A stretch of DNA of 44,169 bases, taken from IMG/VR virus record IMGVR_UViG_2740892274_000005, one strand, 5' to 3'. Each line of letters opens with the position of its first letter. Position 1 is the first letter of the stretch. Positions 4,830 to 43,545 of this stretch are shown here, piece by piece. A program made the translations under genes and the position numbers. This DNA comes from a virus. Its lineage: Duplodnaviria > Heunggongvirae > Uroviricota > Caudoviricetes. Under the pieces are notes generated by a model, which saw only the letters and a list, made by a program, of their open reading frames with translations, had not been told where the DNA came from and made no database searches.

Positions 4830-4936
4830 AAGCCCGTATTTTACCGGGCTTATTCTGTGACAACCAGGATAAAGAGATTTACAGCATGGTCAGGGAGGTC
4901 AGCAGCCGCTTAGGCTGTCTATAGCGCGGCGATTTT

Positions 4937-5010
4937 TTTGATACCGATTTGCATTTCATTTGATACCGCTGAAAAACGCCGATACGCAACTTATTTGATA
5001 CTAAATCGGC
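4937..5010. repeat. Prophage right-end repeats (putative transposase-binding sites, attR-like)
   Basis: TTTGATACCG at 4937..4946 and 4959..4968, plus variant TTTGATACTAAATCGG near 4994..5009. These are the reverse complement of the CGGTATCAAA copies at the left end. Confidence 0.6.
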
Positions 5011-5047
5011 GCTTTTCTTTTGAGTTTTAGAATGAGTTTTTAAGCGT

Positions 5048-5785
5048 TCATTCACTCTCTTTCAAACCAGTTTTAACTGTTTGTGGTTTTGGGTAAGGCT
5101 GGACTTTGAATAGCTTTGTGTTAAGGCGTTTTCTGGCTCTCTTGTCCAGAAACCGGATGTAACGAAACTGACGGAATTTATGAACACTGGCTCTGTCGAT
5201 ATTAGCCCGCAGATGTTCACCTCGCTGTCCTCCTCGTTTGATTGCATTCTTGCAAATCTCGTGATACCACTCGCCATCAAGTTCATAGAATGTTGTTTCA
5301 TGACTGCCTACATAATCAAAATTGCTTGCCTGGTACACGACACCAAGACAGCCACAACGCTCATCTGCAAACGACTGAACCCACTGCACCTGCGGATAAA
5401 GTTGTCTGATTAGTTTGAGCGCGTAACTGATTGCCCTTGATTCGGAGTTTCTCGGCATACAGTCATGCAGCCATAACCGGTTAAGCTCCATATATTCGCG
5501 GTTCTGCGTGCCAGTTACGACGCGTGCACCATTGTTTGGATTAAGGGCATAACCCCATTGCATTACGCCAACCAGCTCCCGTTCTGAAAATATGCCCAGA
5601 TGAAGGTAGGAATTATTTACGAAACGATGGCTGTAATGTTTATTGACGACGACCAGCCGGGCCAGCCAGCAACTTATTGTCTCAACCCGTAACTCACGGG
5701 AGCCATAACCGACGATATTGTCGTTATAGTGAATAAGTTCAGGCGTGCTGATGATACGGGATGTAACTTGCTTTCTGTTCCCCAC
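5048..5785 (-). CDS. mom: Mom-like DNA modification protein (adenine carbamoylmethylation family), start inferred at internal GTG
   Basis: Last gene before the right end and overlapped by a Com-like gene, as in Mu. Proposed start GTG at 5785..5783 preceded by AGGAAA with a 9-nt spacer (245 aa, against 231 aa for Mu Mom). The tracked 310-aa ORF 5048..5980 would run through com and is not favoured. Identity rests mainly on synteny. Confidence 0.6.
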
Positions 5786-5939
5786 GACAGGATTTCCTTG
5801 TGTATGTGGGGTGCTCTGTGGCGCTCTGAGATGTGATTTGATTGAGGGTTTTACAGCGCGGACATTTAACTTCCAGATAACTGAAGCTGGCTCGTGCCAG
5901 TAGCTTGTTACAATGTCGGCACCGTATGTTTCGATACAT
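5739..5939 (-). CDS. com: Com-like zinc-finger translational activator of mom
   Basis: [34 protein letters not shown]...EHPT... matches the Mu Com pattern (IRCKNCNKLL...IEIRCPRCK...EHPT) as I recall it. ATG at 5939..5937 with AGGAGG 10 nt upstream. The 3' end overlaps the mom start, as in Mu. Confidence 0.75.
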
Positions 5940-5984
5940 GGCCGCATAACCTCCTGCTTTGTTGTTGATATCTTTATCACTCAA

Positions 5985-6075
5985 TCGATCGACAAAAACG
6001 ATCGATTTGATTTATTTAATTGATACAACAAATAACACGAAATGTCATTAGCGAAAATTTATGAGTTTGATCACT
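5985..6075. promoter_or_regulatory. Putative mom promoter/regulatory region with a GATC (Dam site) cluster
   Basis: AT-rich region upstream of com with GATC at 5987..5990, 6000..6003 and 6069..6072. In Mu, Pmom is governed by the Dam methylation state of upstream GATC sites (OxyR binding) and is C-activated. No promoter hexamers assigned. Confidence 0.4.
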
Positions 6076-6195
6076 AATTTTAAACGGTGCTGTAACGCAT
6101 AAGTGCTGAATGATTGTACATTTGAATACCGCAAAGCAAACAAATCAACTAATTTATAGAAGTCAATTGGTTAATTGCCAGCGTAAGAGGCTGCT

Positions 6196-6489
6196 ATGGA
6201 CAATCATGTAACGACGAGAAATCGAAAAATGATTGAAAATGCGGAAATCTATAATGATTATTTTTCCGATTATTCAGATGCCTGCAAATACAGTTCGAGT
6301 GCGGGAGAGTTCATATGCTTCAACTTTTTTATTAAATCTTATGTTTTTCCTCCACAGCAAGAAGATGGAGGTGTGCCACCTCCTGAAATCACTTTGCACC
6401 GTATAGCCTCCGTCTCAATGATGGAGCAACAGGCTAATGAGCTGTATAGCATTCTGGGAACGATTCTACAAAAGCGTGAATCGGACTAA
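6196..6489 (+). CDS. Hypothetical protein (low-GC moron), divergent from com-mom
   Basis: 97-aa ORF with AAGAGG 6 nt upstream of the ATG. Visibly AT-richer than the phage backbone. No family recognised. Confidence 0.5.
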   Translation: MDNHVTTRNRKMIENAEIYNDYFSDYSDACKYSSSAGEFICFNFFIKSYVFPPQQEDGGVPPPEITLHRIASVSMMEQQANELYSILGTILQKRESD

Positions 6490-6656
6490 TGATACCGGTT
6501 CATTTGCCTGCCCGGATGGGGAAGCAGGATTGACTGCTCCATAAGCAGCTATATTTCTGAATACGAAATACTATCCAGCGATTACATATGGCTGGATAGC
6601 GGCAAAGATGTTTTCATTAGTGTCAAACCGGCAGAGGACACCACCGGTTTGTATTG

Positions 6657-6911
6657 TTACATCATGGTACTGTCAGTTCCGGGCTGAGCCGGGTCTGGTT
6701 GCTCTGGCTGCGCGTCGGTTTTCGGCTCATTATCAGCATCACTGGCCGCAACTGCTGGCCCAATAAGTTTTGCCAGCACTTCATCAACGTAAGTGTCGAT
6801 TTGTGCCTCAAAATCCTTGCGGACCTGCGCTTTCAGCAACTTATTTACTTCACCGGAATACAGTGCCTGTTTTACCAGGTCTTCAGTGACGGTGCCTTTA
6901 ATTTCTGGCAT
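6657..6911 (-). CDS. Hypothetical acidic 84-aa protein
   Basis: ATG at 6911 preceded by AAGGAGGA with about 6-nt spacing. Translation MPEIKGTVTEDLVKQALYSGEVNKLLKAQVRKDFEAQIDTYVDEVLAKL... then an acidic/Pro-rich tail. No family recognised. Confidence 0.6.
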   Translation of the reverse strand: MPEIKGTVTEDLVKQALYSGEVNKLLKAQVRKDFEAQIDTYVDEVLAKLIGPAVAASDADNEPKTDAQPEQPDPAQPGTDSTMM

Positions 6912-6946
6912 GTATATCCTCCTTATGCGGGAATAAAGCCCTGCAA

Positions 6947-7129
6947 TCAGGGCTGGGTCGGGTCTTTTGGGAGCGGAGTTACCTGCGCTGTTTTACTGAG
7001 TTTTTCAGCTGCTGCGTCCTCAATTTTGCGGCGAACATAATTTCTGATGGCCTTATAACCACCACTCACCAGATATAACGCACATACTGCCGTGCAGAAA
7101 TACAATAAAATAAGCTGTAAAAATGTCAT
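6947..7129 (-). CDS. Small single-pass membrane protein (60 aa)
   Basis: ATG at 7129..7127 preceded by GGGAGGG. MTFLQLILLYFCTAVCALYLVSGGYK has one N-terminal hydrophobic helix followed by a charged tail. The tracked ORF begins 4 codons earlier. Confidence 0.6.
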   Translation of the reverse strand: MTFLQLILLYFCTAVCALYLVSGGYKAIRNYVRRKIEDAAAEKLSKTAQVTPLPKDPTQP

Positions 7130-7225
7130 TATCCCTCCCAATTATTGACATGGTGTTGACACCGGTAATATCTGTTAGGTAAAAAGGTGCACTGCATTTT
7201 TTGCTTTGGATATAACGATCTTTTT

Positions 7226-7267
7226 GCCGCCGGTTTCTTGTTTTCCCTTACCGGCGGCATTTTTTTA
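7226..7267 (+). terminator. Rho-independent terminator, plus-strand orientation
   Basis: GCCGCCGGT (7226..7234) and ACCGGCGGC (7250..7258) form a 9-bp GC-rich stem, followed by ATTTTTTTA on the plus strand. On the minus strand the hairpin is followed by AAAAAG, so it is oriented for plus-strand transcripts. Confidence 0.55.
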
Positions 7268-7273
7268 TCCTGC

Positions 7274-9328
7274 TTACGCGTTATTCACTTCCACCACGAT
7301 ACTGTCAATCAGTACCGGGTAAGTCGCATTTTTAGTGATATCGGTCACGCGCAACTTGTCTGCCGTAAACGTGCCGACCGGAGACTGCGACAGCATGAAT
7401 GGTGTCCCGTCCTTACCATCAATGACCGGCGTCACCTCAATACTGTTGTTACCGGCAAAACGGAAGCCCAGCGTATGCCATTCGTTATTAAATGCGCCGA
7501 ATGACCCCAGCTTCGTGTTCTGCGCCGTGTTTCCTTTGTGATACATCACGTTAAGGTCTGTGGCATCGCTCTGTACGTAGAACGATGCCAGCAGGTTATG
7601 ACCGGCATTTCCTTCCAGAGTAACCCCTTGCGGCAGGGCAGAAACCGGCCAGTACAGCGCCAGTGCGTACTGATTAGCCGTAAGCGCGCCATCGAGTTTA
7701 AAACGACAACTGACAAGACCACCTTTACCCAGCAGGTCCGCACCATTACCAGCATCATGCTCAAGGTACCAGGGGGCTCTTCCTGTTTCCTTGGTCAGTT
7801 TCATTGCCTTACCCCCGCTGGCTCCGGCATCATCCACGATTTGAGCCTTGCCACCTCCGGCAGCCCAACCCTGTGGTGTCAACCGTCCTTCAGACTCAGA
7901 TGCCCGGTAAGCAAATAGCGTACTCATCGTCGTGGTGTCTGCGGGTGGCGTGGACGGTTTTGATGGTGTATCAGGTGACGGCTTCTCATCCGGTGGTGTC
8001 ACGGTCTGCCCACGCATCAGTTCAGCCGTGCGCCCTGCATGGAGCATAATAGCTGAGGCCAGACGGTCTGAAATGACGCCCCTGCGTGCCCATGAGCTGA
8101 AATGGCTGTCACGCTGTGTCGAAACAAAACTGCCCTGGGTTCGGGATGCTGCACCGTAATACCCGACAGCCACAATATCCGGGTCTTCCGCCGGAGCATT
8201 CGTTGGCGTGCTCTGTCCATTCTCATCCGTCAGGAACGGTACAAAGAAAATTTTCTGTGCTTCCTTGCCTTTGTAGCCACCGTATACTGCCTCATATTTA
8301 TCGGTGCCAGCGTTTTTCCAGTAATACGTGGTATCACCGCAAATCCACGGCACCGTGGTGGCATTTCCACTCACGCACTGCGCAGCAAGCGGAGCCAGGT
8401 CAGTTCTGAACTGCTGAACCATGGCCGTGAATAAACTATTATGCTGCTGGCTTCCTGAGGCAAGGTCTGCCTCTCCCTGCATCCAGACCACAGCCAGAAG
8501 TTTGTTTTTCGGGTTTTTCGCCAGCGCGACTTTGGTGCGGCTTACCAGGTCCTGATACAGAGGTTTACCGGCCCCCCAGCGTGAAGAATCAGCGGAAGCA
8601 CCGCTGGCCTCACTGAATGAGCCGTCGGCTCCAGTGGTGAATGCTGACCCGCCACGACAACAGGGCACCAGAAGTATCCCGGCATTCTGTGGGATATAGG
8701 GAAGCAGTTTTTTGGCAATATGCAACCCCTGACCGACAGTCCCGTACTGGCCTTTTGCCAGATCAGCTTTCGGGTGGTTTATCCCGCTCATATCCTGAAC
8801 ATCATGCAGGCAGTGGTCTGCCGGAATGATGTCGTTGTATGTACACGACGTACCGTTGGGCGTTACCGTACTGCGGCGTGCCAGTTGCTTAATGCGTGGG
8901 TCCGGGCGGTCAAACGAATCCGGTAACGGCAGCCCCTCGCCGTAGGCCATGCCATTTGACTGACCCGCGAGAATGACAACAAAGTAATATTCCGGCTCTG
9001 AACTGCTGCCATTCGTGCTACCGGAAGGCCCGGCGTTATCCGGTGCATTCCAGTCGGAGGGCGTGAGCGTTCCGGCCACGTCAGATGTGATTGGAATGAT
9101 GCCAGTCACGCCTGAACTGGTGATTTCTGCACTGGGATTACCGGATACCGGCATTACCCATAATGGCTCTTTCGTGCTGAAGCGGATCACGCAGTCTGCG
9201 AAGGTGATCCCCCCTTTATTACCCGAAGGGCGGAAAGGGCTTTCAATAAATGCCACCGTGCCACCGGCAACCTTGACTGAAAACTCTCCGGGCATGGCGG
9301 AGAGCATTTTCCACTTGGAGTCTGACAT
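7274..9328 (-). CDS. SGNH/SASA-type carbohydrate esterase-domain protein (sialate O-acetylesterase-like), 684 aa; candidate polysaccharide deacetylase
   Basis: Contains the esterase block YYFVVILAGQSNGMAYGEG (GQSN motif of the SASA/SGNH fold) after an N-terminal region of about 115 aa. C-terminal region of about 250 aa could be a lectin/jelly-roll domain. Not a Mu core gene. Confidence 0.7.
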   Translation of the reverse strand: MSDSKWKMLSAMPGEFSVKVAGGTVAFIESPFRPSGNKGGITFADCVIRFSTKEPLWVMPVSGNPSAEITSSGVTGIIPITSDVAGTLTPSDWNAPDNAGPSGSTNGSSSEPEYYFVVILAGQSNGMAYGEGLPLPDSFDRPDPRIKQLARRSTVTPNGTSCTYNDIIPADHCLHDVQDMSGINHPKADLAKGQYGTVGQGLHIAKKLLPYIPQNAGILLVPCCRGGSAFTTGADGSFSEASGASADSSRWGAGKPLYQDLVSRTKVALAKNPKNKLLAVVWMQGEADLASGSQQHNSLFTAMVQQFRTDLAPLAAQCVSGNATTVPWICGDTTYYWKNAGTDKYEAVYGGYKGKEAQKIFFVPFLTDENGQSTPTNAPAEDPDIVAVGYYGAASRTQGSFVSTQRDSHFSSWARRGVISDRLASAIMLHAGRTAELMRGQTVTPPDEKPSPDTPSKPSTPPADTTTMSTLFAYRASESEGRLTPQGWAAGGGKAQIVDDAGASGGKAMKLTKETGRAPWYLEHDAGNGADLLGKGGLVSCRFKLDGALTANQYALALYWPVSALPQGVTLEGNAGHNLLASFYVQSDATDLNVMYHKGNTAQNTKLGSFGAFNNEWHTLGFRFAGNNSIEVTPVIDGKDGTPFMLSQSPVGTFTADKLRVTDITKNATYPVLIDSIVVEVNNA

Positions 9329-9413: not shown

Positions 9414-9986
9414 TCACGGTACTTTTGGTGACGGAGCTGGTGAGGCAGGAAAATAACGATAAAGGGTGGAAAGGCCAATATCAAATATCAGTGCGATTTG
9501 TTTACGGGACTCGCCATTAGCCAGCAAACGGGCGATTTGCTCCCGCTCTTTCTCTGTCAGTTTCTGAGGTCTGCCGCCATGACGCCCCTGAGCACGGGCA
9601 GCAGCAAGACCCGCGCGTGTACGTTCAATAATGAGTTCCCGCTCCATTTCCGCCAGCGCGCCCATTATATGGAAAAAGAAACGTCCCATGGGAGTGGATG
9701 TATCAATATTGTCCGTAATGCTGCGGAAGTTAACGCCGCGTTGCCGGAGTTCTTCTGTTAAAAGGACAAGGTGCTGCATACTGCGTCCAAGGCGATCCAG
9801 TTTCCAGACCAGCAGGGTATCCCCTGGCCGGAGTCGCTTTAATGCGCGTTTAAGTCCGGGACGCTCCCTTGTCTTACCGCTTATTCTGTCTTCGAAAAAC
9901 AGCTCACATCCTGCACATTCCAGCGCATTTCTTTGTAGCGCCGTATTCTGGTCATTTGTTGACACCCTGATATACCCAATCAGCAT
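9414..9986 (-). CDS. gin: Serine recombinase DNA invertase (Gin/Hin/Cin/Pin family)
   Basis: MLIGYIRVSTNDQNTALQRNALECAGCELFFEDRISGKTRERPGLKRALKRLRPGDTLLVWKLDRLGRSM... is near-collinear with Mu Gin as I recall it. Lies immediately beside the invertible segment. Confidence 0.93.
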   Translation of the reverse strand: MLIGYIRVSTNDQNTALQRNALECAGCELFFEDRISGKTRERPGLKRALKRLRPGDTLLVWKLDRLGRSMQHLVLLTEELRQRGVNFRSITDNIDTSTPMGRFFFHIMGALAEMERELIIERTRAGLAAARAQGRHGGRPQKLTEKEREQIARLLANGESRKQIALIFDIGLSTLYRYFPASPAPSPKVP

Positions 9987-10051
9987 ACGATTTCCTTATT
10001 ATAAAAAGCCGGAATTGTCGCATGAGGAATAAAACAGAGTTAATCCTGGCT

Positions 10052-10077
10052 TTCCTGAAAACCTCGGTTTACGGGAA
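10052..10077. promoter_or_regulatory. gix-like crossover site (right border of the invertible segment)
   Basis: Plus strand TTCCTGAAAACCTCGGTTTACGGGAA; its reverse complement TTCCCGTAAACCGAGGTTTTCAGGAA closely matches the Mu gix sequence as I remember it (TTCCTGTAAACCGAGGTTTTGGATAA). It sits exactly where homology between the two repeat blocks ends. Confidence 0.7.
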
Positions 10078-10190
10078 ACGGTAAACAGGGCGGCGAATGC
10101 TCTGCCATCGGACGGCACCGCCGTTGCCGCGAATAGACTCGCCACCCCAAGAAATATTAATGGGGTTCCCTTTGACGGGACGCAGGACAT
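10065..10190. repeat. Inverted repeat block (partner at 11256..11381) inside the invertible segment
   Basis: Plus 10065..10091 CGGTTTACGGGAAACGGTAAACAGGGC is the exact reverse complement of 11355..11381. Tracked ORFs 9999..10199 (-) and 11154..11444 (+) share [26 protein letters not shown] and [11 protein letters not shown], which shows the inverted homology. Confidence 0.85.
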
Positions 10191-10425
10191 AAACATCACT
10201 TCTGGTATAACACAGCAGGATGCGGATTCCCGATATATCCAGGATATCAGGCTGGGAGCAGAGAACAGGCAGGTAATGTACGGTGGGGCATATTACTCTG
10301 CGTACGGTAATGTTATGGCAGGCCTGCAGATTGACAGTAAAGTTGATGCTTCAAACGATTTTATAGCATTCAGACCCCTGCAAAAATTAGTCGGAGGTAC
10401 ATGGATTACGGTATCTCAGTTATAA
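10066..10425 (+). other. Promoterless alternative tail-fibre C-terminal cassette (S'v-like), currently in the off orientation
   Basis: Plus frame from 10066 reads [119 protein letters not shown], stop at 10423..10425. No start codon of its own; it would be fused to the constant fibre part after inversion. C-terminal RPLQKLVGGTW parallels [11 protein letters not shown] of the expressed fibre. Confidence 0.7.
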
Positions 10426-10476
10426 ATAGTCAGTAAATAATATATTTTAAAACAGATTTATTTCCAGGAGGATTTT

Positions 10477-10998
10477 ATGGAACTAAAAAATATAACCCGT
10501 TATTATCCTGAAAATATGCCATATGGTAATAATGTTCAGTATTTCCAGAGTGAAGATGGTAAGGATTTCTACGAATCCCTGCCATTATTCACCAAAAAAT
10601 ATAAACTTTGCATAACACCTGACAGCGGCGTTATCTGCTCAATATCACAGGACGCCTCGGCGCTGTATCCTGCGGGGTTTTCTGTGGTTGAGGTCGATGA
10701 ACTCCCTGAAGGCACGGATATTTCAGGAAACTGGAAGTTTGATAATGGCATAATCTCCCGTATTCCGGTTAACTACGCAAGAAAACTGGAAGCAATGCGC
10801 CAGTCATATCTTAATCAGGCATATGAAAAAATTAATGACTGGAGAACGGAGCTACAACTGGGCACCATCAGCGATGAAGACAGAGCAGCACTTACCCAAT
10901 GGATGGCATACATCAGTCAGGTGAAGAAAATGGAACTACCCGCCATTAAAACAGAAGCTGAATTTAACGCCATTAAATGGCCTGAGCAGCCACAGTAA
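10477..10998 (+). CDS. Tail fibre assembly protein (Tfa/Mu U-type chaperone)
   Basis: 173 aa with AGGAGG upstream. N-terminal region and C-terminal ...AEFNAIKWPEQPQ are typical of the Tfa chaperone family. Follows the alternative fibre cassette on the same strand. Confidence 0.8.
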   Translation: MELKNITRYYPENMPYGNNVQYFQSEDGKDFYESLPLFTKKYKLCITPDSGVICSISQDASALYPAGFSVVEVDELPEGTDISGNWKFDNGIISRIPVNYARKLEAMRQSYLNQAYEKINDWRTELQLGTISDEDRAALTQWMAYISQVKKMELPAIKTEAEFNAIKWPEQPQ

Positions 10999-11001
10999 TA
11001 A

Positions 11002-11021
11002 AGAAGGCCGGAAGGCCTTCT
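11002..11021. terminator. Hairpin between the convergent Tfa and tail-fibre genes (possible bidirectional terminator)
   Basis: AGAAGGCC GGAA GGCCTTCT is a perfect 8-bp stem with a 4-nt loop between the stops at 10998 (+) and 11030 (-). The flanking T/A runs are weak. Confidence 0.45.
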
Positions 11022-11029
11022 GAATATCA

Positions 11030-11911
11030 TTATATACTTGCAGCCGTCACCCATGCTCCATTTAACAGATACTGCAACGGCCGGTAATACACGCCGCCGA
11101 CGTTATCTGCCGTATTCTTACCGACATCCTGTACTTTAATTCCGGTAAGAACATTGCCGCCCCCCAGATTCAGATCCCAGCTTTCCCATGTTCCGGGCAT
11201 ATGTGCGGTCACCGACCCCAGTCTTATGGCGGTTACTGTTCCTGATGAGATAGTGATATCCTGCGTCCCGTCAAAGGGAACACCATTAATTGTGTGGGCA
11301 TTTGCCAGCCTGTTCGCGGCAACGGCGGTGCCGTCCGATGGCAGGGCATTCGCCGCCCTGTTTACCGTTTCCCGTAAACCGACGTTATCGATAAAAGCCC
11401 CTTTATCCGGAATGTCTGCGCCGTTCTGCTCCCTGCGCAGGTAACGGTTATCACCTTCGCTTTTGCTGTAAACATCCAGATTATTACGGGCGGTTCCCTT
11501 ATTCTCCAGGTCGGCGAGATTCTGATCCTTCGCCAGGGCATTAACGTCAGCGGGACCAAGACTGTTTTTTGTGGCAAGCGTCCCCAGACCAAGATAACCA
11601 CGGGCCAGACGCTGGGCCTCCGCACCGGCATCAGCAATTTCTTTCAGGTTATTTTTCCGGGAAAAGGCATTCGCAGCGATAATGGCTTTAATGGACAGCG
11701 TAAGCTGGTTTAACTGCGCCTTATCCGGCTGAATACTGGCTTCAGCCAGAATATTCAGCAGTTCGGCCTGGAGAATATTCAGCCAGTCCTGACCAATCCA
11801 GCTGATACCTTTTTGTCCGTCACCTTCGGTAAACCAGGTGGTGGTATTACTCTGCGCCGGTGCCAGCGCAGGCATATTCGCCACGCCGGAATTATTATCA
11901 ACATGAAACAT
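11030..11911 (-). CDS. Tail fibre protein (Mu S-like), constant N-terminal part fused to the currently selected variable C-terminus
   Basis: N-terminus [43 protein letters not shown] resembles Mu-type fibre proteins. C-terminus ...[22 protein letters not shown]. The gene spans the left gix-like site. Confidence 0.8.
11256..11381. repeat. Inverted repeat block (partner at 10065..10190)
   Basis: Same evidence as for 10065..10190. Encodes the fibre segment [24 protein letters not shown]...[12 protein letters not shown] shared by both alternative C-termini. Confidence 0.85.
11369..11394. promoter_or_regulatory. gix-like crossover site (left border), inside the tail-fibre gene
   Basis: Plus strand TTCCCGTAAACCGACGTTATCGATAA, in inverted orientation relative to the site at 10052..10077. 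Confidence 0.7.
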
Positions 11912-19088: not shown

Positions 19089-19091
19089 GGG

Positions 19092-30913: not shown

Positions 30914-30923
30914 GATTCACCTC

Positions 30924-33486: not shown

Positions 33487-33557
33487 TGTTACGCTGTCTC
33501 ATGGTGTTCTCTGAGTCAGCGTAACCGTGAGGAAAAGGGGGCAGGATTTGCGGAATA

Positions 33558-33980: not shown

Positions 33981-34050
33981 ACCCGCCTCCGGTCATCATT
34001 ACACAGGGCAAGTTTAAAATAAAAATCCCGCGCTGTGGCGGGATTTGGGG

Positions 34051-35141: not shown

Positions 35142-35142
35142 A

Positions 35143-36159: not shown

Positions 36160-36162
36160 GCA

Positions 36163-36678: not shown

Positions 36679-37211
36679 TACGCCACCTCCGCAGATATCC
36701 CGGCAGGCGCTGCTGTCCGGTCAACAATCAGGTAGCGCAGAACATGTTCAGTGATATTCCAGCCGCTTAAACCGCAGATAATGACGCCCAGGCGTATGTC
36801 GATATACGCCATCACAAACTGGGGCACGCCTTCTTTCATGGCCTGCTCATCAACTTCAGCCACCACATAAACGGTTTCACAGGTCAGAACGCCCTGAGCA
36901 AATTCCCACGCCATCGACGGAATATCATGCCCCTCAATCCATGGCAGGGATTTTCTGAAGCCGCACCACTGAACATCATCAGCCGCAGATTCCTGGCTGC
37001 ATTTGCGACGAACCGGCTGCACCGGGCGGGGACGCGGAATATCATAAAAACCGTTACATTCCGTCAGCACGCCTGCATCAACCGCATCACGCAGAAAATA
37101 AACCATGGAGGATGGCGGCATATTCATTTTTTCAGCCAGTACACCGCAGGTCAGGCGGCCATAAATACACAGCCAGTTTTTAACCCCTTCAAGCACTTTT
37201 GCATCAATCAT
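36678..37211 (-). CDS. Hypothetical early protein (177 aa)
   Basis: Follows gam after a 145-bp AT-rich gap. No family recognised. Confidence 0.5.
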   Translation of the reverse strand: MIDAKVLEGVKNWLCIYGRLTCGVLAEKMNMPPSSMVYFLRDAVDAGVLTECNGFYDIPRPRPVQPVRRKCSQESAADDVQWCGFRKSLPWIEGHDIPSMAWEFAQGVLTCETVYVVAEVDEQAMKEGVPQFVMAYIDIRLGVIICGLSGWNITEHVLRYLIVDRTAAPAGISAEVA

Positions 37212-37356
37212 GATTTATTTCCCCACCACATTATTAATGACGATATAAACGTATTTCATATTTCTTAACCCTTATTTTCTGTTTTCAGGCGCAAGCAGTC
37301 CCCTGACGCGAGCGCCATAATTAAAATGAAGTGATATTTAATTGATTAATGCGGTG

Positions 37357-37887
37357 TTATTTATTCAGTCCGGCGTCCTGTTCAAAAGGCTCGACATAAA
37401 AACTTTCAGCGCCTTTATTCACCTTGATACCGGCAATGCCTTTCACAGCATCCGGCTCCGCCAGGACGGCTTCCTTGTTCACTTCCTCTTTCGTGCGGAT
37501 GAAACGCTCAAGCCCCATACGGCGCAGCATTTCAATCACACCTTCCACATCACGGCTGACGCTGCATGATGGCGTTCCCAGCCGCCATGACACCGTTCCG
37601 GTGGTCAGATTGGCTGTTTTGGTTTTGCCGCCGTTCGTCAGCTCATCACGGTTGGTTTTGCACCAGTCCTGAATCCCTTTAAAAAGCACTTTGATTTGCT
37701 TTTTAAGATTTTCAATCTGCGGCGTATAACGGGCGGTGATTTCTGCCACTTCGTCATTCATCGCCGTTTCCAGGCGCAGCGCCTCTCGCTGAATATCTCC
37801 CAGGGTGCGGATATCACGGCTGACTTCTTCCCGGGTCTGCGGTGCCGCCTCGGCTGCGGCCTTTAATTTTGTAACGCGTTTAGCCAT
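37357..37887 (-). CDS. gam: Host-nuclease inhibitor Gam (Mu Gam, Ku-like)
   Basis: MAKRVTKLKAAAEAAPQTREEVSRDIRTLGDIQREALRLETAMNDEVAEITARY...NRDELTNGGKTKTANLTTGTVSWR... is near-collinear with Mu Gam as I recall it. Confidence 0.85.
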   Translation of the reverse strand: MAKRVTKLKAAAEAAPQTREEVSRDIRTLGDIQREALRLETAMNDEVAEITARYTPQIENLKKQIKVLFKGIQDWCKTNRDELTNGGKTKTANLTTGTVSWRLGTPSCSVSRDVEGVIEMLRRMGLERFIRTKEEVNKEAVLAEPDAVKGIAGIKVNKGAESFYVEPFEQDAGLNK

Positions 37888-37898
37888 TTTGTTTTTCC

Positions 37899-38192
37899 TT
37901 ATTGCAGTGTGCCTGATGCTTTATGCACGCGGTGGCGTTTAATGATGGCATCCGCTCCAAAAGACTGTGCAGATGCCTGAAATTCCGCTGAGAGAAACTG
38001 AATAATTGCAGGACTGTGATACTGGAGAATACTTGCATAAACGTCACAGAGTGACGTCGGCCTGTTATCCGTATCACGTTCTGTTTTCACATCCACTCCA
38101 ATCTTTTCATGCACTTCAACACAGTCATTGCCTGCCAACTTTTCGTCATGCGAAACATGATTAAATTCAAAAATAACGCGTACTTTGCTCAT
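37899..38192 (-). CDS. Small early protein, paralogue of 38197..38469
   Basis: Start taken at the internal ATG 38192 (MSKVRVIFEFNHV...). Shares the N-terminal pattern MSKV-R-IFE-F/Y with the adjacent gene. Confidence 0.5.
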   Translation of the reverse strand: MSKVRVIFEFNHVSHDEKLAGNDCVEVHEKIGVDVKTERDTDNRPTSLCDVYASILQYHSPAIIQFLSAEFQASAQSFGADAIIKRHRVHKASGTLQ

Positions 38193-38196
38193 GGAA

Positions 38197-38469
38197 TTAC
38201 CCCTGTTGATTAAATTCATTACCGTTAATAACCCCGGAAGCCATGCCTCTGTCTTTCATGAATGCACTGGCTTTCATTGCCACAAACTCTGCGAAGTTTC
38301 TGCTTTCTGCCAGCATAACCACCCCAAAAATCATGGCGGGTCCATTATCTTTCTTCTTTATTCCGGTTGAACGTATATCCAGACTTACCCCTCTGTGCGT
38401 GCTGCCATCAGAGTTTTTGCAGATAACATCTTCCTTGTATTCGAAAATAATGCGTACGACTTTACTCAT
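38197..38469 (-). CDS. Small early protein, paralogue of 37899..38192
   Basis: 90 aa, MSKVVRIIFEYKEDVICKNSDGSTHRGVSLDIRSTG.... Tandem with its paralogue. Confidence 0.5.
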   Translation of the reverse strand: MSKVVRIIFEYKEDVICKNSDGSTHRGVSLDIRSTGIKKKDNGPAMIFGVVMLAESRNFAEFVAMKASAFMKDRGMASGVINGNEFNQQG

Positions 38470-38747
38470 CCTCTGGTCCTCGTTCTGTTTGGATAACTGA
38501 CCCGGCGTCTAACCTCACGGCAGAACCGAATCATGGCATTAAAGGCTTCTTCCTCCGTCACCGCTTCCGGTATCCCCGGAACCAGTAACTGCTCCTGTTC
38601 ATCACGTCCATGACGCGCCATAACCTCAATCACATGCCGTACCGTGGCAGGCTTTCCGGCAACTATCGGCAATGCACCTTCCGGCAGGACGTAACCAAAC
38701 TCAATAAGACCACTCGACCACGCCCATGCAATGAGATTTTTTTTCAC
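38466..38747 (-). CDS. Hypothetical early protein (93 aa)
   Basis: Coupled by a 4-nt overlap to the downstream gene. No family recognised. Confidence 0.5.
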   Translation of the reverse strand: MKKNLIAWAWSSGLIEFGYVLPEGALPIVAGKPATVRHVIEVMARHGRDEQEQLLVPGIPEAVTEEEAFNAMIRFCREVRRRVSYPNRTRTRG

Positions 38748-38748
38748 C

Positions 38749-39015
38749 TCACACCTCCCAGTAAACCGTGCAGCCGCTGATGCGGGTGGCCTTCACACGG
38801 CGGCGCAGGCCGTTGGTCTGTATGGTGATTTCAATTTCACCGGTTCCCTGCACGTTGCCTACCGGCGGCGTGGTTTTCAGTGCAAAACGTTGCGGATAGC
38901 GCTTACTGCGTTCCAGTACCGCACCGGCAAGTTCGGTCAGACGGCGCGCGCTGTTCAGGGAGTCGAATAAATTCATTTTGTTACCGCAGGATTGCATATT
39001 CATATAACACCTCAT
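38749..39015 (-). CDS. Hypothetical early protein, start uncertain
   Basis: 88-aa tracked ORF with several candidate Met starts (MNMQ.., MNLFDS..). No family recognised. Confidence 0.4.
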   Translation of the reverse strand: MRCYMNMQSCGNKMNLFDSLNSARRLTELAGAVLERSKRYPQRFALKTTPPVGNVQGTGEIEITIQTNGLRRRVKATRISGCTVYWEV

Positions 39016-39243
39016 TTAGCTGACTTGTTTCGCACCAACAGAACGGCATATTCCGCTGTAAACTTCTGTCGCACCTTCGCGATCAAGTCCGGCAGATATC
39101 ACCATTCGTGTGCGGTCATTAAATTCAAAAAGTAAATCGCCACATTCTTTATTTTCGGCCAGTGAAATCACCTTCACGTTATCGAAATTAACCAGGTAAA
39201 AGCGTCCGTAAATATCAGGAATATTAAATACCGCCATAATCAC
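39016..39243 (-). CDS. Small early protein immediately after B (position of kil in Mu)
   Basis: 75 aa, overlaps the B stop by 4 nt. Assignment to kil is positional only. Confidence 0.4.
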   Translation of the reverse strand: MIMAVFNIPDIYGRFYLVNFDNVKVISLAENKECGDLLFEFNDRTRMVISAGLDREGATEVYSGICRSVGAKQVS

Positions 39244-40181
39244 ACCTGTGAGAGTAATTCAGGGTTGGTATAAACCTCTTTAAAGGCCGCATTAATATGT
39301 TTTTCTGTCAGCGCCGCGCCTTCACCGCTGGCGGTGAGCCACGCCTGGTTAAGCGTATGTGTCAGAACGCGTAACGCTCCCGGCTTTTCAGCGATAGCCT
39401 GCATGACGGCCAGCTCGGCCTCACCACTGATCCCCCACGCCATGGCAATGGCCAGCACATCCGCCTTTTTGGCCTTGCGAAGTTGTTTTGTACGGGCAAG
39501 ACGGCTGAACAGGCGCGATAAATCATCAAAGGCGCGGCGTCCACCTTTAAACAATCCGCGCGGGTTACCAATAAGCACCATCCCGATCCCCGTGGCGTCC
39601 TGAATTGCCCGGAGTTGCTCCAGACCGTCAATACCAAGATGATCCGCCTCATCCACAATCACCAGTCCACGCGTTCCCATCAGGCGACGGCGGATGGCGC
39701 GGGATAATGCCCCTTTGTTCGCGCGGGTGTAATCAATCCCCAGCGCATCGGCCAGCTCCAGCAGACACTCCGTGACGCTGGAGTGCGCGGGTGACAGGGT
39801 GATCATCCAGGTGTTTGGTTGCTCCTGGCAGTAATTACGGGCAGTGGCCGTTTTACCCACACCCGGTACGCCCACAATAACGTTAATACAGCCCATCAGG
39901 CGAACCGCCTGAAACAGTGCGCGCAGCTCCTGGACTGTCTGAGTTTCCACAAACTGCGGCGGTTCCGGCAGTGCGCTTTGTTTATTCCAGTTCTCATACC
40001 AGGAGCGCAGGGAAGCAGCCACAGCAGCGTTATCGCCTTTATATTTTCCCTTACGGAAAGCCGATAATGTGCCGTCGGAAATTCCCGCCTCTCTGGCGAT
40101 GGCATACTGCGTCAGTACGCCGCCATCAATAAGTTCATCAATGGTCTTGATTACATCGTTAATATCGGTCATATTATTCAC
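39240..40181 (-). CDS. B: DNA transposition ATPase MuB-like
   Basis: 313 aa; ...LPEPPQFVETQTVQELRALFQAVRLMGCINVIVGVPGVGKTATARNYCQ...WMITLSP...LVIVDEADHLG... is collinear with Mu B as I recall it (Walker A GVPGVGKT). Confidence 0.88.
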   Translation of the reverse strand: MNNMTDINDVIKTIDELIDGGVLTQYAIAREAGISDGTLSAFRKGKYKGDNAAVAASLRSWYENWNKQSALPEPPQFVETQTVQELRALFQAVRLMGCINVIVGVPGVGKTATARNYCQEQPNTWMITLSPAHSSVTECLLELADALGIDYTRANKGALSRAIRRRLMGTRGLVIVDEADHLGIDGLEQLRAIQDATGIGMVLIGNPRGLFKGGRRAFDDLSRLFSRLARTKQLRKAKKADVLAIAMAWGISGEAELAVMQAIAEKPGALRVLTHTLNQAWLTASGEGAALTEKHINAAFKEVYTNPELLSQV

Positions 40182-40254: not shown

Positions 40255-42342
40255 TCAGGCCAGCGGATCACTTTCTTTTAATTTCGCTTCGAGCAGTTGC
40301 AATCCCCGCTGGAAATTACGCTCGTATTCTTCATCAGGTTCATCGTCAGCGACCGGTTGCTGAACGGTCACCGTATTACCCACAGGGCGGTATATGTTTT
40401 CCAGCCAGGGCTCCTGCGGCTTGTGCTCCAGCACGTTGACAACCTCATCCTCGGCATCACGGATTTTTTCCTCTGCGCGTTTACGCATGCCTTTAAGGCG
40501 CTGCTGCTGTTTGTAGTATTCCGCGCTGACAGGGAAGGCTTCGCGTTTATTGCCGTCCCATACCGCCTCGCAAATCACGCTGCCATCCGGGCGGCGCACG
40601 GTAATTCGTTCGGCATCATGAATGTCATAGCTGATAAGTACCTTACGGCCATGCTCGTCACGCAGCTCGGGCGCGTAGTAAATATTATTCAGCCAGCGTA
40701 TTTCACAGCGTCTTACAGGGCGCTCCACCATCGGCCGGAACATATCCCGCAGTTCAACATCGGACAGCCATTCAATTTCCGTGTCCTCTTCCGCCAGGCG
40801 TTTTTTTCTGAACTCCGCCGGGCTGTAATGTTTACCGTTCGGCTTCATGGGTAATTCATCGTGCGGCCGGTTGTTGTACCACTCAACACCGTCACGAATG
40901 GCATCAATCAGTTCAGACCAGGACGGTAAATCACGCATCGCTGACTGCTGCCGGGCGTTCAGCCGTTTGCCCTGTTGCAGGGCACTGAATGCCGAGCGTA
41001 AATCGCGGTTGGTTTTACGTAACGTCTCGCGATCTGCTCCTTTCCCGAAATAGGTGCGGTATTTACGGGCTATGCGCATCGGTAATGTGCGGTTAAGCCG
41101 TTCGATAATGCCCCGTCCCTGCGGATTACCGGCAATCCCTGTCGGGTGATTAATCCCCAGTCGTGGCAGTATCCCCACAATCTCCTTATCCAGGACGTCG
41201 GCGGTTTCCCCGGAGCCATTATCCGAGTAATACAGAAACGGTTTGCCATGATGGCGAATACCGTGCTGTATGGCACCGGCTACGGCGAAAACATTTTCAG
41301 CCAGGTCAAGGCTCCAGCCCACCACAAAGCGCGTGCCACCGTCGATAACAAAGGTCACTTCCGGTGCGAATGGCCGCCCGTGAACCGGGTGCGCGCATTT
41401 CAGCTTCATGCCGTGACCGTCACCAATCCAGACATAATTCACCGGCATTCTGGACCAGTCGCGGCGCGTGAATCCCTCAAGCTGACGGTATTCACTGCCA
41501 GTTACCCGGCCTTTTTGTTTCACCACTTCCGGCAGTTTCTTCATTGCGCGGCGAATGGTGTCATAAGAGGGCATGATATCGAGCATATAAGGCTCATCAG
41601 CGTGCCGGTGCTGCCATTCAGCAACAAAATCCTCGTAAGCCTCGGTCATTGGTCGGCCGTTTGACTGGCGATACTGCGCCAGAAATTCGGGCAGCCAGTT
41701 AATATCTTCGGCTTTTATTTCCTGGCGTTTACCCGGTGCCAGTAAAAGCAGGCGTTCAGCGGCGTTCTGTGCCTTGTTAAAGGCCGCAATCCAGCGTTTC
41801 AGCGTGATTTCACTCAACGCGCGGCTGTTTCCCTTTTTGGCGTTCGCCGTCTCAACCATTGCCACAATGCGCTCGTCCAGTTGTGATCGTGCCAGGCTGT
41901 TAACGAGGAACCGGATAGCTTTAGCGCAGCTGAAACCGGGTTGTTGCGTGAATTTCAGCACCTCACTGACGATCGCAATGCGTGCGTCTGCCACCTGGCG
42001 CTGGTTTTCAGTCAGGGCATTGAGGCGTTCGACCATCAGTTGTGGTGATCCGCGATATGCCTCCACCGCATCAACCACGGCAGACGAGCGTCTGGCCTTT
42101 GTCACCACCGGAGCCGGTGATTCATCGGCTTTTTGCGTCATCAGTTGCAGGGCATAACGTTCGCGTAATGCCTGCTGTGTCACTTCAGGTAAACAGTCAA
42201 TGCTGTATTCAAAACCTTTAGCGCCTTTCTTGCGGCGTCTGCTGGTTTCGCTGGTTGCATACTTCCTGATTGAATAGCGAACGCCTTGCTCCGTTCCCGG
42301 CATCCCCGGTAATCCAACCAGTTCTTTAACTGAAGCAAACAT
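40255..42342 (-). CDS. A: Mu-type DDE transposase A
   Basis: 695 aa directly downstream of ner and upstream of B. Large multidomain protein of the size and position of MuA. Confidence 0.88.
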   Translation of the reverse strand: MFASVKELVGLPGMPGTEQGVRYSIRKYATSETSRRRKKGAKGFEYSIDCLPEVTQQALRERYALQLMTQKADESPAPVVTKARRSSAVVDAVEAYRGSPQLMVERLNALTENQRQVADARIAIVSEVLKFTQQPGFSCAKAIRFLVNSLARSQLDERIVAMVETANAKKGNSRALSEITLKRWIAAFNKAQNAAERLLLLAPGKRQEIKAEDINWLPEFLAQYRQSNGRPMTEAYEDFVAEWQHRHADEPYMLDIMPSYDTIRRAMKKLPEVVKQKGRVTGSEYRQLEGFTRRDWSRMPVNYVWIGDGHGMKLKCAHPVHGRPFAPEVTFVIDGGTRFVVGWSLDLAENVFAVAGAIQHGIRHHGKPFLYYSDNGSGETADVLDKEIVGILPRLGINHPTGIAGNPQGRGIIERLNRTLPMRIARKYRTYFGKGADRETLRKTNRDLRSAFSALQQGKRLNARQQSAMRDLPSWSELIDAIRDGVEWYNNRPHDELPMKPNGKHYSPAEFRKKRLAEEDTEIEWLSDVELRDMFRPMVERPVRRCEIRWLNNIYYAPELRDEHGRKVLISYDIHDAERITVRRPDGSVICEAVWDGNKREAFPVSAEYYKQQQRLKGMRKRAEEKIRDAEDEVVNVLEHKPQEPWLENIYRPVGNTVTVQQPVADDEPDEEYERNFQRGLQLLEAKLKESDPLA

Positions 42343-42344
42343 AA

Positions 42345-42575
42345 TTACGCGACCTTACGAATGTAGCGGCTGGGCCAAATCTCCTCGGGCGGCACCCCCA
42401 GGCATTCCGCGATAATCCCCTCATACTTGGGAACATGGCGGTATACCGCGTTGTACAGATTGTTCTGACCCACGCCAGCTTTACGGGCCAGCGCCCTCAT
42501 GCTTCCTTCTCTGGCTCTGACTTCCCCCAAAATTCTTTGAGGATGCCAATCAGGCTTAACTTCATTTCTCGCCAT
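42345..42575 (-). CDS. ner: Ner-like DNA-binding regulator (Ner/Nlp family)
   Basis: 76 aa; ...WHPQRILGEVRAREGSMRALARKAGVGQNNLYNAVYRHVPKYEGIIAECLGVPPEEIWPSRY... matches the Ner pattern (...IWPSRY). First gene of the early operon. Confidence 0.85.
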   Translation of the reverse strand: MARNEVKPDWHPQRILGEVRAREGSMRALARKAGVGQNNLYNAVYRHVPKYEGIIAECLGVPPEEIWPSRYIRKVA

Positions 42576-42603
42576 GATTCATCTATCCTAAAAAGTTACG
42601 AAA

Positions 42604-42627
42604 TTTGATAACTAAACTTAGTTATCA
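42604..42627. promoter_or_regulatory. Perfect palindrome in the c/ner intergenic region (candidate operator)
   Basis: TTGATAACTAA AC TTAGTTATCAA has 11-bp arms and a 2-bp spacer. A further inverted pair ATTGATCCAC (42643..42652) / GTGGATCAAT (42698..42707) carries GATC sites. Confidence 0.5.
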
Positions 42628-42760
42628 AGTTTGATATAAGTATTGATCCACTTCTGCTTCATGTAAAGCAAAAAAAACATCTTTCTTTTGTCTATTGTGG
42701 ATCAATGGTTGCTGACAACACTAAAAGTTAATAATTTCAAATTGATAGGAAGAAAAGAAA

Positions 42761-43306
42761 ATGAACAAGCAAACAACAACATCTCTTTCTTTTCCTGGTG
42801 GTAGAAAAGAAAGCATTGCTGAGCGTCTGAAAAGGCTGATTGGCTCCCGCAGCGTCAGAGCTGCAGCAAGAGATTGGGGGCTTTCATTTTCAACACTAAA
42901 CAATTATCTGTCTCGTGGCACTGAGCCATCCTTAAGTGTCGCCCTTCAGATTGCGTCTATCGAAGGAGTAAGTGTTGAGTGGCTATGTGGATTCAGTGAT
43001 GCATCACAAGTGAATCGGTGTGAGATCAAGGAAAATCAAGATGAAAGCAAGAAGATAATTATGACGATTATCAGCGCACTTGATGAAAAAGACTTAGAGC
43101 AGCTATCGAAAAATTTGGTTCTGAATGGAGCCAAGTACTTAGCTCGGTTGTTAGAGCCTGAAAATCAAGATCTAATCCGCTTAGAAGGAAGGAAAAGAAT
43201 AGCTGCATTACAGCTTGAAGGTATGTCTGACGAACGCGTCAGAGAGATTTTGGAAGAAACTGAGAGAAGTCGCAAATCTAACGCGGTAGAACCAAAAGCG
43301 GGTTAA
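42761..43306 (+). CDS. Putative phage repressor (HTH protein, c-repressor position)
   Basis: 181 aa transcribed divergently from ner towards the left end, as for Mu c. N-terminal HTH-like segment (...SVRAAARDWGLSFSTLNNYLSRGTEPSLSVALQIASIEG...). Confidence 0.6.
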   Translation: MNKQTTTSLSFPGGRKESIAERLKRLIGSRSVRAAARDWGLSFSTLNNYLSRGTEPSLSVALQIASIEGVSVEWLCGFSDASQVNRCEIKENQDESKKIIMTIISALDEKDLEQLSKNLVLNGAKYLARLLEPENQDLIRLEGRKRIAALQLEGMSDERVREILEETERSRKSNAVEPKAG

Positions 43307-43377
43307 TAGCATTAGCCCGCATTTTGCACTATATCGAGTATTTCGCATTGTTTGGAACGCCTTAAAAGACTAAAACC

Positions 43378-43545
43378 ACAGTATCAAATGAGTTGCCGAT
43401 TTTATAATAAATGACTAATTATTGCACAATCGGTATCAAATAGACCTTATCCGCACATCTAGCCATCACCTGTTTTATTTCAGTATCTTACAGGTGATTT
43501 CACCTCCTTTCACTAAACCCCTTGTCGGTATCAAATGATTCACCT
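43378..43545. repeat. Prophage left-end repeats (putative transposase-binding sites, attL-like)
   Basis: CGGTATCAAA at 43431..43440 and 43526..43535, plus variant CAGTATCAAA near 43378..43387. Reverse complements of the right-end copies. Confidence 0.6.

Follow-up and report, generated by a model that had tools for sequence, protein, structure and literature searches.

An apparently intact Sp18-type Mu-like prophage with TA termini in a defective IS66 element near ssrA

The window analysed here, a 44,169-nucleotide stretch recorded in IMG/VR as a virus of the Caudoviricetes (IMGVR_UViG_2740892274_000005), carries a large set of phage genes close to ssrA, and raises the question of what kind of element these genes form, where it ends and how it came to lie there. 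The genes belong to a Mu-like prophage of 38,633 bp on the minus strand (positions 4920-43552), whose termini were set by independent insertions of the same family and by an intact IS66. The prophage runs from right to left, with the mom end at the left and the repressor end at the right. It very probably represents a Mu-like transposable myovirus of the Sp18 family, present as an intact prophage, that landed by DDE transposition in the tnpB gene of a defective IS66. A first-pass annotation made from the sequence alone had placed it at 4916-43545; the prophage itself is real, but both coordinates were off and are corrected here.

In a tblastn search with all Mu proteins, the matches in the window lie on the minus strand and are collinear. 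Identities to the Mu proteins are 45% for ner, 48% for B, 57% for gam, 46% for gemA, and 40% each for the C/Mor family and the lysozyme; 72% for TerL, 58% for the portal, 59% for F, 51% for the protease and 67% for the major head protein; 50% for the sheath, 48% for the tube, 36% for the tape measure, 46-58% for the baseplate proteins and 47% for the S N-terminus; and 74% for gin, 45% for com and 75% for mom. The Pfam domains found were Mu-transpos_C and HTH_Tnp_Mu_1 (A), Phage-MuB_C (B), Mor, Resolvase (Gin) and Mom. All the following modules lie on the minus strand unless stated otherwise. The semi-essential early region (34634-39237) contains gam (37357-37887), a kil-like gene and homologues of gp11/gp12. 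A gemA-like gene (34051-34563), a single activator gene of the Mor/C family (33558-33980, from tblastn and Pfam) and the lysis genes (lysozyme at 32986-33486 and Rz/Rz1-like genes at 32321-32921) share the stretch 32321-34563. Head and packaging genes occupy 21865-31505 (small and large terminase, portal, F, G, protease/scaffold, major head, head-tail connectors), and the contractile tail module occupies 11030-21861 (fibre, baseplate, DNA-circularisation protein, tape measure, tube, sheath). An invertible fibre segment at 10057-11389 has 86-nt inverted repeats at its borders (10057-10142 and 11304-11389) and holds the S 3′ end, an alternative S′ 3′ end (10051-10425, plus strand) and a fibre-assembly gene (10477-10998, plus strand); next to it is a gin-type serine invertase gene (9414-9986; Resolvase and HTH_7 domains). 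Between gin and the modification genes there is an accessory module (6229-9328, assigned from Pfam and PGAP names) that encodes a 684-aa SASA esterase/DUF6645 protein (7274-9328), a DUF1378 protein (6947-7129), a DUF826 protein (6657-6911) and an 86-aa ORF on the plus strand (6229-6489); part of it (8475-8971) has nucleotide matches to lambdoid/P88-type phages. The left end is occupied by mom (5048-5785; Pfam Mom, 260 bits) and com (5739-5939). NCBIfam gave no names for the esterase, Mom or the fibre ORFs on the ssrA side.

A prophage in E. coli strain 600029 is nearly identical to that of the window, end to end, at 99.74% identity, and its PGAP annotation served as the reference for intactness. 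All of its 55 CDS are intact and of equal length in the window. With the collinear Mu gene set, this agrees with the first-pass description of a complete Mu-like transposable prophage, and by gene content comparison the prophage is apparently intact. Two features count against this reading: there is a single Mor/C-family gene, whereas Mu has two, and no assembly gene follows the fibre gene while the invertible segment is in its current orientation.

The transposase gene A (40255-42342, minus strand) encodes 695 amino acids and matches the phrog_310 transposase profile with 706 bits. Its Pfam domains are HTH_Tnp_Mu_1 (35.7 bits, cut-off 23.3) and Mu-transpos_C (63.3 bits, cut-off 21.7). In BLASTP, A is collinear with MuA over the full length, at 22.6% identity (E 1e-13), and D269 and D336 of MuA align to D308 and D374 of A; E414 was assigned by aligning A to the retroviral integrase core. 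D308, D374 and E414 are thus the putative catalytic residues. A phmmer search against solved structures matched the N-terminus of A to the enhancer-binding domain of MuA (1TNS) and did not find the MuA core; since the overall identity is also low, the DDE assignment is based on alignment. The adjoining gene (39240-40172, minus strand) encodes a MuB-type AAA+ target-capture ATPase (Phage-MuB_C, 87 bits). On the other side of A are a ner-like early regulator gene (42345-42575, minus strand; HTH_35) and, on the plus strand, a lysogeny repressor gene with an XRE/CI-type HTH (42761-43306; phrog_3037 repressor, 204 bits), for which Mu c gave no tblastn match. When species-representative genomes were scanned with A, only two loci were found, both carrying the same fixed remnant (A 74% identical), and neither has a recognisable element end.

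The exact ends emerge from a comparison of the window copy with nine other independent insertions and the intact IS66. The element ends are 5′-TATA...TATA-3′ (termini 5′-TATAGCGCGG...CCTGGTTATA-3′), with a 4-bp duplication, TGTC, immediately outside at 4916-4919 and 43553-43556. The intact IS66 in genome L006 has a single TGTC, and the empty site reconstructed from the window aligns to its tnpB without a gap. Similarly, all ten independent insertions of the family have a 4-bp duplication with differing bases outside TATA. They are located in a gene for an SgrR-family regulator, bcsA, xdhA, flgL, sorM, a diguanylate cyclase gene, near ybfB/an RHS gene, in two Stx phages and in the IS66 of the window. 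The ten sites together hint that the 4-bp target begins with a pyrimidine-purine-pyrimidine pattern. Seven of these ten copies, at seven different sites and in different strains, have TA at both ends; in the remaining three, namely Sp18 of Sakai and the two insertions in Stx phages, the repressor end reads TG. At the mom end every copy has TA, Sp18 included. LC727895 and LC727881 were deposited in GenBank with annotations that agree on the boundaries and on the 4-bp duplication; in the literature searched we found nothing relevant on a 4-bp duplication or TA termini of Sp18-like phages, and we met the duplication as a GenBank feature only.

The first-pass annotation had instead taken the TG at 4916 as the phage terminus. 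A canonical Mu-type element starting at this TG with a 5-bp duplication would fit the resemblance of positions 4916-4917 to a Mu terminus and the 5-bp duplications of Mu (PMC8705779), but the TGTC direct repeat is present again at 43553-43556, and in the nine other insertions the four bases beyond TATA vary and are always duplicated. Neither a 5-bp nor a 6-bp duplication fits any of the ten insertions. TGTC is therefore target DNA, and the canonical Mu-type boundary, already refuted by the intact IS66 join and the ten-insertion comparison, is hardly conceivable. The boundary we adopt is TATA with a 4-bp duplication. Mu-type transposases follow a CA rule for 3′ ends. The TA-3′ termini depart from it, which counts against our main reading; the location of the copies with TA at both ends at seven different sites argues that TA termini are functional.

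How, then, did the prophage come to lie beside ssrA? The tmRNA gene itself (1722-2084, plus strand; identified by ARAGORN and by Rfam RF00023 with 295.8 bits) serves as a chromosomal landmark. It is followed by the tail-fibre end of a separate prophage integrated at ssrA (2085-4333, minus strand; ORFs 2283-3194 and 3145-4317). This ssrA-adjacent DNA is 96% identical to that of STEC308 until the homology ends at 4333; in STEC308 it belongs to the end of a long tail module that goes on with genes for fibre assembly, baseplate and tape measure. In the window IS66 truncates the 5′ end of the fibre gene. The ssrA prophage is represented only by its fibre end up to IS66, and the window then ends inside IS sequence; to call this DNA a degraded older phage remnant, as the first-pass annotation did, is an overstatement. 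The left part of the defective IS66 (4334-4919, minus strand) starts with the terminal GTAAGCG inverted repeat at 4334 and, by alignment to L006, contains a tnpC fragment (4371-4829, minus strand) with an internal deletion of 1,062 bp, covering only positions 269-385 of the NCBIfam transpos_IS66 profile, and the last 41 nt of tnpB (4879-4919, minus strand). The right part (43553-44058, minus strand) holds the 5′ part of tnpB (43557-43863; IS66_TnpB of NCBIfam, 119.8 bits, cut-off 50) and a tnpA fragment (43860-44058). The tnpA-tnpB-tnpC organisation, the GTAAGCG terminal repeat and ~99% identity to an annotated IS66 identify the target, which is defective through the internally deleted tnpC and the truncated tnpA. 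The tnpA gene is truncated by the end of another IS-type fragment (44059-44169), which has a 100% match elsewhere in L006 under a partial transposase gene annotated as ‘integrase core domain’.

The phage target duplication lies inside IS66, so IS66 arrived before the phage, and the nesting inside an IS66 beside ssrA proposed by the first-pass annotation is upheld by the gapless empty site. It could be argued that the whole region is a single ssrA-targeted island placed by an integrase: ssrA is a common attachment site, it adjoins the region, and the neighbouring fibre genes come from a prophage that did integrate there. However, the Mu-like element sits inside IS66, 2.8 kb away from ssrA, no tyrosine integrase is listed in the annotation of the 38.6 kb of the near-identical copy, and the same element occurs at unrelated loci elsewhere, the family occupying at least 10 unrelated sites. 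An ssrA-targeted island is thus extremely improbable, in line with the earlier statement that no ssrA-targeted integration had taken place. Transposition into IS66 was also recent, since none of 5,426 complete E. coli genomes contains the exact junction of the prophage with IS66.

The ends also carry repeats. The motif TTTGATAC has seven exact matches in the 44 kb, against 1.0 expected, and none of 100 shuffled sequences reached seven. Six of the seven copies, all directed inward, lie less than 170 bp from the termini: the mom end has three putative transposase-binding repeats (4937, 4959 and 4994, spanning 4937-5001, plus strand; 18, 40 and 75 nt from the end) and the repressor end another three (43528, 43433 and 43381, spanning 43381-43535, minus strand; 18, 113 and 165 nt from the end). 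These are the three inverted copies per end that had been noted at first pass. As putative sites, the repeats at the mom end are close together like R1-R3 of Mu, and those at the repressor end are spaced like L1...L2-L3. No MuA consensus site was found at either end with up to 5 mismatches allowed, and given the low identity of A to MuA, the ends do differ from those of Mu as the earlier annotation had held.

That annotation further suggested a distinct Mu-like lineage. The lineage is indeed distinct (A ~23% identical to MuA, an unrelated repressor, no MuA sites), but it has already been described as the Sp18 family of E. coli O157 Sakai, and copies more than 99% identical to the window prophage are present in public genomes. 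Sp18 was predicted to be intact and is reported to be efficiently packaged, not circularised and not inducible by mitomycin C (PMC2669165). Sp18-like phages vary in position, 6 of 10 being in mobile elements, and the study that likened its Mu-like phages to Sp18 is the source of the matching phages in LC727895 and LC727881 (PMC10132054). Sp18-like copies in STEC (e.g., Mu_JNE122137, LC727895) share 90-93% nucleotide identity with the window over 69-93% of the length, and A of Sp18 from O157:H7 Sakai is 93.8% identical. The Sp18/STEC copies have an identical mom-end terminus, the same end repeats, the 4-bp duplication and a tRNA-like element at the same place, and differ from the window by mosaic changes in the early and accessory regions and, in Sp18 and two STEC copies, by TG instead of TA at the repressor end. 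The insertion site of the window prophage is new. By nucleotide identity and shared termini the prophage belongs with the Sp18-like E. coli prophages.

In the broad sense it is also a Mu-like transposable phage, by its A protein, MuB-type gene, insertion sites and end repeats. Mu (Muvirus mu) shares the collinear ner, B, gam, gemA, C, lysis, head and contractile tail genes, the invertible fibre segment, gin, com and mom, all homologous at 35-75% amino-acid identity, as well as three repeats per end with similar spacing and many insertion sites. In contrast, Mu has TG...CA termini and a 5-bp duplication and lacks the esterase/DUF1378/DUF826 module and the tRNA-like gene, and nucleotide similarity of Mu, D108 and SfMu to the window is confined to one patch of ~600 bp with ~72% identity. 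Termini, duplication, MuA sites, repressor and nucleotide similarity place the prophage outside Mu sensu stricto (genus Muvirus). Among other relatives, the A gene of the Yersinia phages vB_YpM_5 and vB_YpM_6 is 81% identical at the nucleotide level, with the remaining genome in the gene layout and sizes of Mu; vB_YpM_5, a circular assembly, has TTTGATAC-type repeats, the first at the same 17-nt distance as in the window, and TA at termini inferred from the assembly junction. A of the Pseudomonas phage VW-6B (47% identical) and of the D3112/MP22 group (~30% identical over 89% of the length) are closer to A of the window than MuA is. The right end of VW-6B, the only end compared because the record ends inside the repressor region, begins TGTAGCGCGGCGA, nearly as in the window; VW-6B and D3112-type phages differ in host, end repeats and nucleotide sequence. 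Ab30, of the D3112 type, shows a 5-bp shift between its two insertion orientations (PMC5977238). TA at both ends has been described for the TA-TA prophages of Leptospira, which have 6-bp duplications and the footprint of a B3/Tn552-family transposase, and whose existence in other bacteria was left open (PMC8705779); they have TA ends in common with the window and are unrelated in sequence.

These comparisons bear on whether the prophage might be cryptic and immobile, a relic that looks complete but has lost an essential function, or whose TA termini are inactivating mutations of TG...CA. The canonical TG at the repressor end of Sakai Sp18 and the two Stx-phage copies, the right end TGTAGCGCGGCGA of VW-6B against TATAGCGCGGCGA in the window, and the failure of mitomycin C to induce Sp18 (PMC2669165) would be consistent with decay. 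Yet the seven copies with TA at both ends each have an intact 4-bp duplication, all 55 reference CDS are intact, the junction missing from the 5,426 genomes shows a recent insertion, and the invariant TA of the mom end is found even in the efficiently packaged Sp18 (PMC2669165). A relic is therefore unlikely. We somewhat favour the view that the Sp18-type A is a MuA-family transposase that acts on 3′-TA ends with a 4-bp stagger, that the TA-TA class thus also occurs in E. coli, and that these phages carry a tRNA-like gene.

By analogy with Mu, we infer how binding, cleavage chemistry, regulation and packaging would proceed in this prophage. A would bind three TTTGATAC-type sites per end in the L1-L3/R1-R3 layout, though of unrelated sequence, nick the 3′ ends at ...TATA-3′ instead of ...CA-3′, and join them to a target that the B ATPase would deliver and that would be cut with a 4-bp stagger. 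The XRE-type repressor would hold lysogeny, the Ner-like protein would control early transcription, and the single Mor/C-family activator would switch on the late genes. Gin would invert the fibre segment, Com/Mom would modify the phage DNA, and packaging would be headful, so that the ends would carry host DNA.

Between two head genes, and antisense to them, we also observed a conserved tRNA-like gene that lacks a normal anticodon arm. Flanked by the F-like and G-like genes, it occupies 26016-26095 (plus strand; Rfam tRNA, 31 bits, E 4.6e-5) and lies downstream of a promoter-like TTGCCT-N18-TAAAAT at 25977-26006 found by a promoter scan; in Sakai the corresponding position falls between ECs_4971 and ECs_4972. 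Four relatives carry the PGAP annotation ‘tRNA-OTHER’ at this position, and the acceptor stem shows covariation among variants. ARAGORN called the element in none of the window, Sakai and L022, and its single-sequence fold is no more stable than shuffles (z = -1.0), so the case for it rests on the Rfam tRNA model and the covariation. A link to the use of glycyl-tRNA by Mom was considered and found to be without support: Mu has Mom and no tRNA-like element, and variants differ in their acceptor stem as well as in the base that follows it. The gene may be a regulatory or counter-defence RNA; the literature searched held nothing relevant on a tRNA-like gene in Mu-like prophages.

As a prophage call, this locus adds little, since Sp18-type phages, near-identical copies and landing in mobile elements are already public. 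It is an ordinary find except for its non-Mu ends, with TA termini and a 4-bp target duplication, and the conserved tRNA-like gene. If our reading is true, the TA-TA class, reported as new in Leptospira in 2021, is also present in the genetically tractable E. coli, and the Sp18 family could help to explain how such transpososomes recognise the terminal dinucleotide and set the spacing between the two strand transfers.

The ends of the prophage were set by comparing the copy in the window with nine other independent insertions of the Sp18 family (10 in total), which lie in an SgrR-family regulator gene, bcsA, xdhA, flgL, sorM of E. coli O157:H7 Sakai (Sp18 itself), a diguanylate cyclase gene, a site near ybfB/an RHS gene, and two Stx phages. 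In all 10 insertions the repressor side of the common sequence starts with T(A/G)TA and its mom side with TATAGCG, and the four bases outside the ends form a direct repeat (TGTC, TGTT, CGTC, CACA, TGCG, TTTA, CGTA, CACG, CTCT and GATG). A 5-bp target duplication fits none of the 10. The empty site, reconstructed by joining 4334-4919 to 43557-44169 with one TGTC kept, aligns with an intact IS66 with no gap at the junction. This puts the element at 4920-43552, a length of 38,633 bp, with the TGTC target duplication occupying 4916-4919 and 43553-43556. The first-pass annotation had placed the phage start at 4916, but the TG there belongs to the duplicated target and was mistaken for a Mu-type terminus. 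GenBank features of LC727895 and LC727881 carry identical boundaries and a 4-bp "duplication due to insertion of Mu"; given this annotation by the depositors, the 4-bp duplication is already on record and is not a new observation. A literature search found no paper discussing it for the Sp18 family. The target duplication is 5 bp in Mu and 6 bp in B3 (PMC8705779), and a 5-bp shift is described for the D3112-like phage Ab30 (PMC5977238).

Seven of the 10 copies have TA...TA termini, including that in the window (4920-4923 and 43549-43552), and the remaining three, Sakai Sp18 and the two Stx-phage copies (L007, L015 and L018), combine TG at the repressor end with TA at the mom end. The 4-bp duplication is common to both types (10/10). 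A TA...TA copy is found at seven different sites, so the Sp18-type transposase A must be able to use TA ends. A Leptospira prophage study of 2021 stated that every Mu- and B3-like phage known by then had TG...CA ends, reported TA-TA ends as new and asked whether other bacteria harbour TA-TA prophages (PMC8705779). The end-repeat motif TTTGATAC, a putative A-binding site, has seven copies in the window, where one is expected. Six copies are terminal and face inward, with starts at distances of 18, 40 and 75 nt (mom end) and 18, 113 and 165 nt (repressor end), which bears out the earlier observation of three inverted copies per end. This layout is similar to that of Mu, with its tight R1-R3 and split L1...L2-L3. 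The MuA binding consensus has no match at either prophage end with five mismatches allowed, in agreement with the earlier statement that the end repeats are unlike those of canonical Mu.

Aligned along its whole length, A (40255-42342, minus strand) shares 22.6% identity with MuA (E 1e-13). MuA D269 and D336 align with D308 and D374 of A, and the third catalytic residue would be E414, since residues 362-424 match retroviral integrase cores. The first 60 residues of A match the MuA enhancer-binding domain of known structure (1TNS). The repressor (42761-43306, plus strand) has an XRE/CI-type HTH at its N-terminus, and its C-terminal half weakly matches the C-terminal part of the PHROG repressor family phrog_7148, the N-terminal part of which matches the N-terminus of A. 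It follows from this pattern and the XRE/CI-type HTH that the repressor and A, unlike the Mu pair, probably have no common DNA-binding domain. These results suggest that the DNA-binding domain of the repressor has been swapped relative to Mu c. Both protein (A and repressor) and DNA (the ends) thus support the proposal that this lineage has an end specificity of its own. Two related phages agree with the use of TA ends. A of Pseudomonas phage VW-6B is 47% identical to that of the window, and its right end starts with TGTAGCGCGGCGA, where the window prophage has TATAGCGCGGCGA. The isolated Yersinia phage vB_YpM_5 has the gene layout and gene sizes of Mu, together with an A gene of 81% nucleotide identity to that of the window, TTTGATAC-type repeats and TA at its inferred termini (L009 4572-4966 and 5930-8023). 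This phage looks like a hybrid of natural origin, its transposase having been swapped along with both ends.

All Mu proteins were compared with the window by tblastn, giving collinear matches from right (ner, A, B) to left (gin, com, mom). B is 48% and Ner 45% identical to the Mu protein, and most late proteins fall in the range 35-75%; A gives weak local matches only, and the Mu repressor c has no match in the window. Pfam domains include Mu-transpos_C and HTH_Tnp_Mu_1 on A, Phage-MuB_C and an AAA domain on B, as well as a Mor-family activator, a Gin-type resolvase and Mom, and A falls in the PHROGs phage transposase family phrog_310 (706 bits). The collinear gene set and these domains support a complete Mu-like prophage as first annotated, with the ends corrected. 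End to end it shares 99.74% identity with the prophage of E. coli strain 600029, and all 55 protein-coding genes annotated there are intact and of equal length in the window, most encoding identical proteins; the claim of no obviously disrupted core genes therefore holds. A single Mor/C-family activator gene (33558-33980, minus strand) lies between gemA and the lysozyme gene, where Mu has mor, three small genes and C, which implies a shorter regulatory cascade than that of Mu.

An accessory module absent from Mu (6229-9328, between gin and com) encodes a 684-aa SASA-esterase/DUF6645 protein, DUF1378, DUF826 and an 86-aa ORF, and matches lambdoid or P88-type phages at the nucleotide level. Stx prophages carry similar sialate esterases, termed NanS-p, and the module may be an esterase cassette of this type. 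The invertible fibre segment (10051-11389) has one fibre-assembly gene, coupled to the now-silent S' end; as the segment is now oriented, no assembly gene follows the expressed fibre gene (11030-11911). Three relatives (L002-L004) are without gin and part of this segment.

The window is E. coli DNA, in which ratA and smpB precede ssrA (1722-2084) as in annotated genomes, and the prophage, on the minus strand, takes up most of it. The flanks 4334-4919 and 43553-44058 are two parts of a single IS66 copy, and the gapless empty site confirms that the phage is nested in IS66 beside ssrA. The IS66 TnpB scores above the NCBIfam cut-off, while a 152-aa ORF (4371-4829) matches the IS66 transposase in its C-terminal third only (NCBIfam). 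This copy is doubly defective: tnpC has an internal deletion of 1,062 bp relative to the intact copy, the two aligned pieces overlapping by 18 nt, and another IS-type fragment cuts off tnpA at 44058/44059. The right edge of the window falls within IS sequence. Shigella flexneri SFBU1023 and E. coli ECMA0423 (L042 and L043) both have the IS-type end that truncates tnpA next to what remains of an A gene of 74% identity. Left of IS66, 2085-4333 is 96% identical to STEC308 DNA that likewise abuts ssrA and is there the fibre end of a long tail module. IS66 interrupts the fibre gene of this ssrA prophage about 80 nt from the gene start, and the phage lies in IS66 37 bp 5' of the tnpB stop codon; the order of insertion is therefore ssrA prophage, IS66, Mu-like phage, as had been proposed. 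Since the insertion junction does not occur among the complete E. coli genomes in the collection, the last insertion is probably recent.

The F-like and G-like head genes, which overlap in Mu, are here separated by a gap that holds a conserved 80-nt tRNA-like sequence in antisense (26016-26095, plus strand), preceded by a promoter-like site (25977-26006). The sequence scores 31 bits with the Rfam tRNA model and has normal acceptor, D and T arms, with a short tetraloop hairpin or enlarged loop in place of the anticodon arm. ARAGORN did not call it, and PGAP calls "tRNA-OTHER" at the same gene in four relatives. Homologs are found in L035 (1641-1721, minus strand), L022 and L036-L041, and the Sakai annotation lacks the gene, a diverged version there scoring 31.4 bits. 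Two acceptor-stem pairs covary on both sides, with 99% of cells paired, limited evidence given eight variants. G-U pairs show the predicted structured strand to be the antisense one. A TAAAAT hexamer upstream is invariant within an otherwise variable spacer, and in one relative the gene is ~96% identical, against ~72% for its neighbours. It was found in none of the isolated phages in the collection and is absent from Mu.

Sp18 is known as a Mu-like prophage predicted to be intact, with an invertible host-range region distinct from that of Mu, and its DNA is efficiently packaged, not circularised and not induced by mitomycin C (PMC2669165). Sp18-like phages vary in position among strains (PMC7430833), and 6 of 10 in one STEC lineage lie inside other mobile elements, Stx phages among them (PMC10132054); nesting in an IS element is thus expected for the family. 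The first interpretation is largely right, and the element is an ordinary member of a known family, in which only the unusual transposition parameters and the tRNA-like gene might repay more work.
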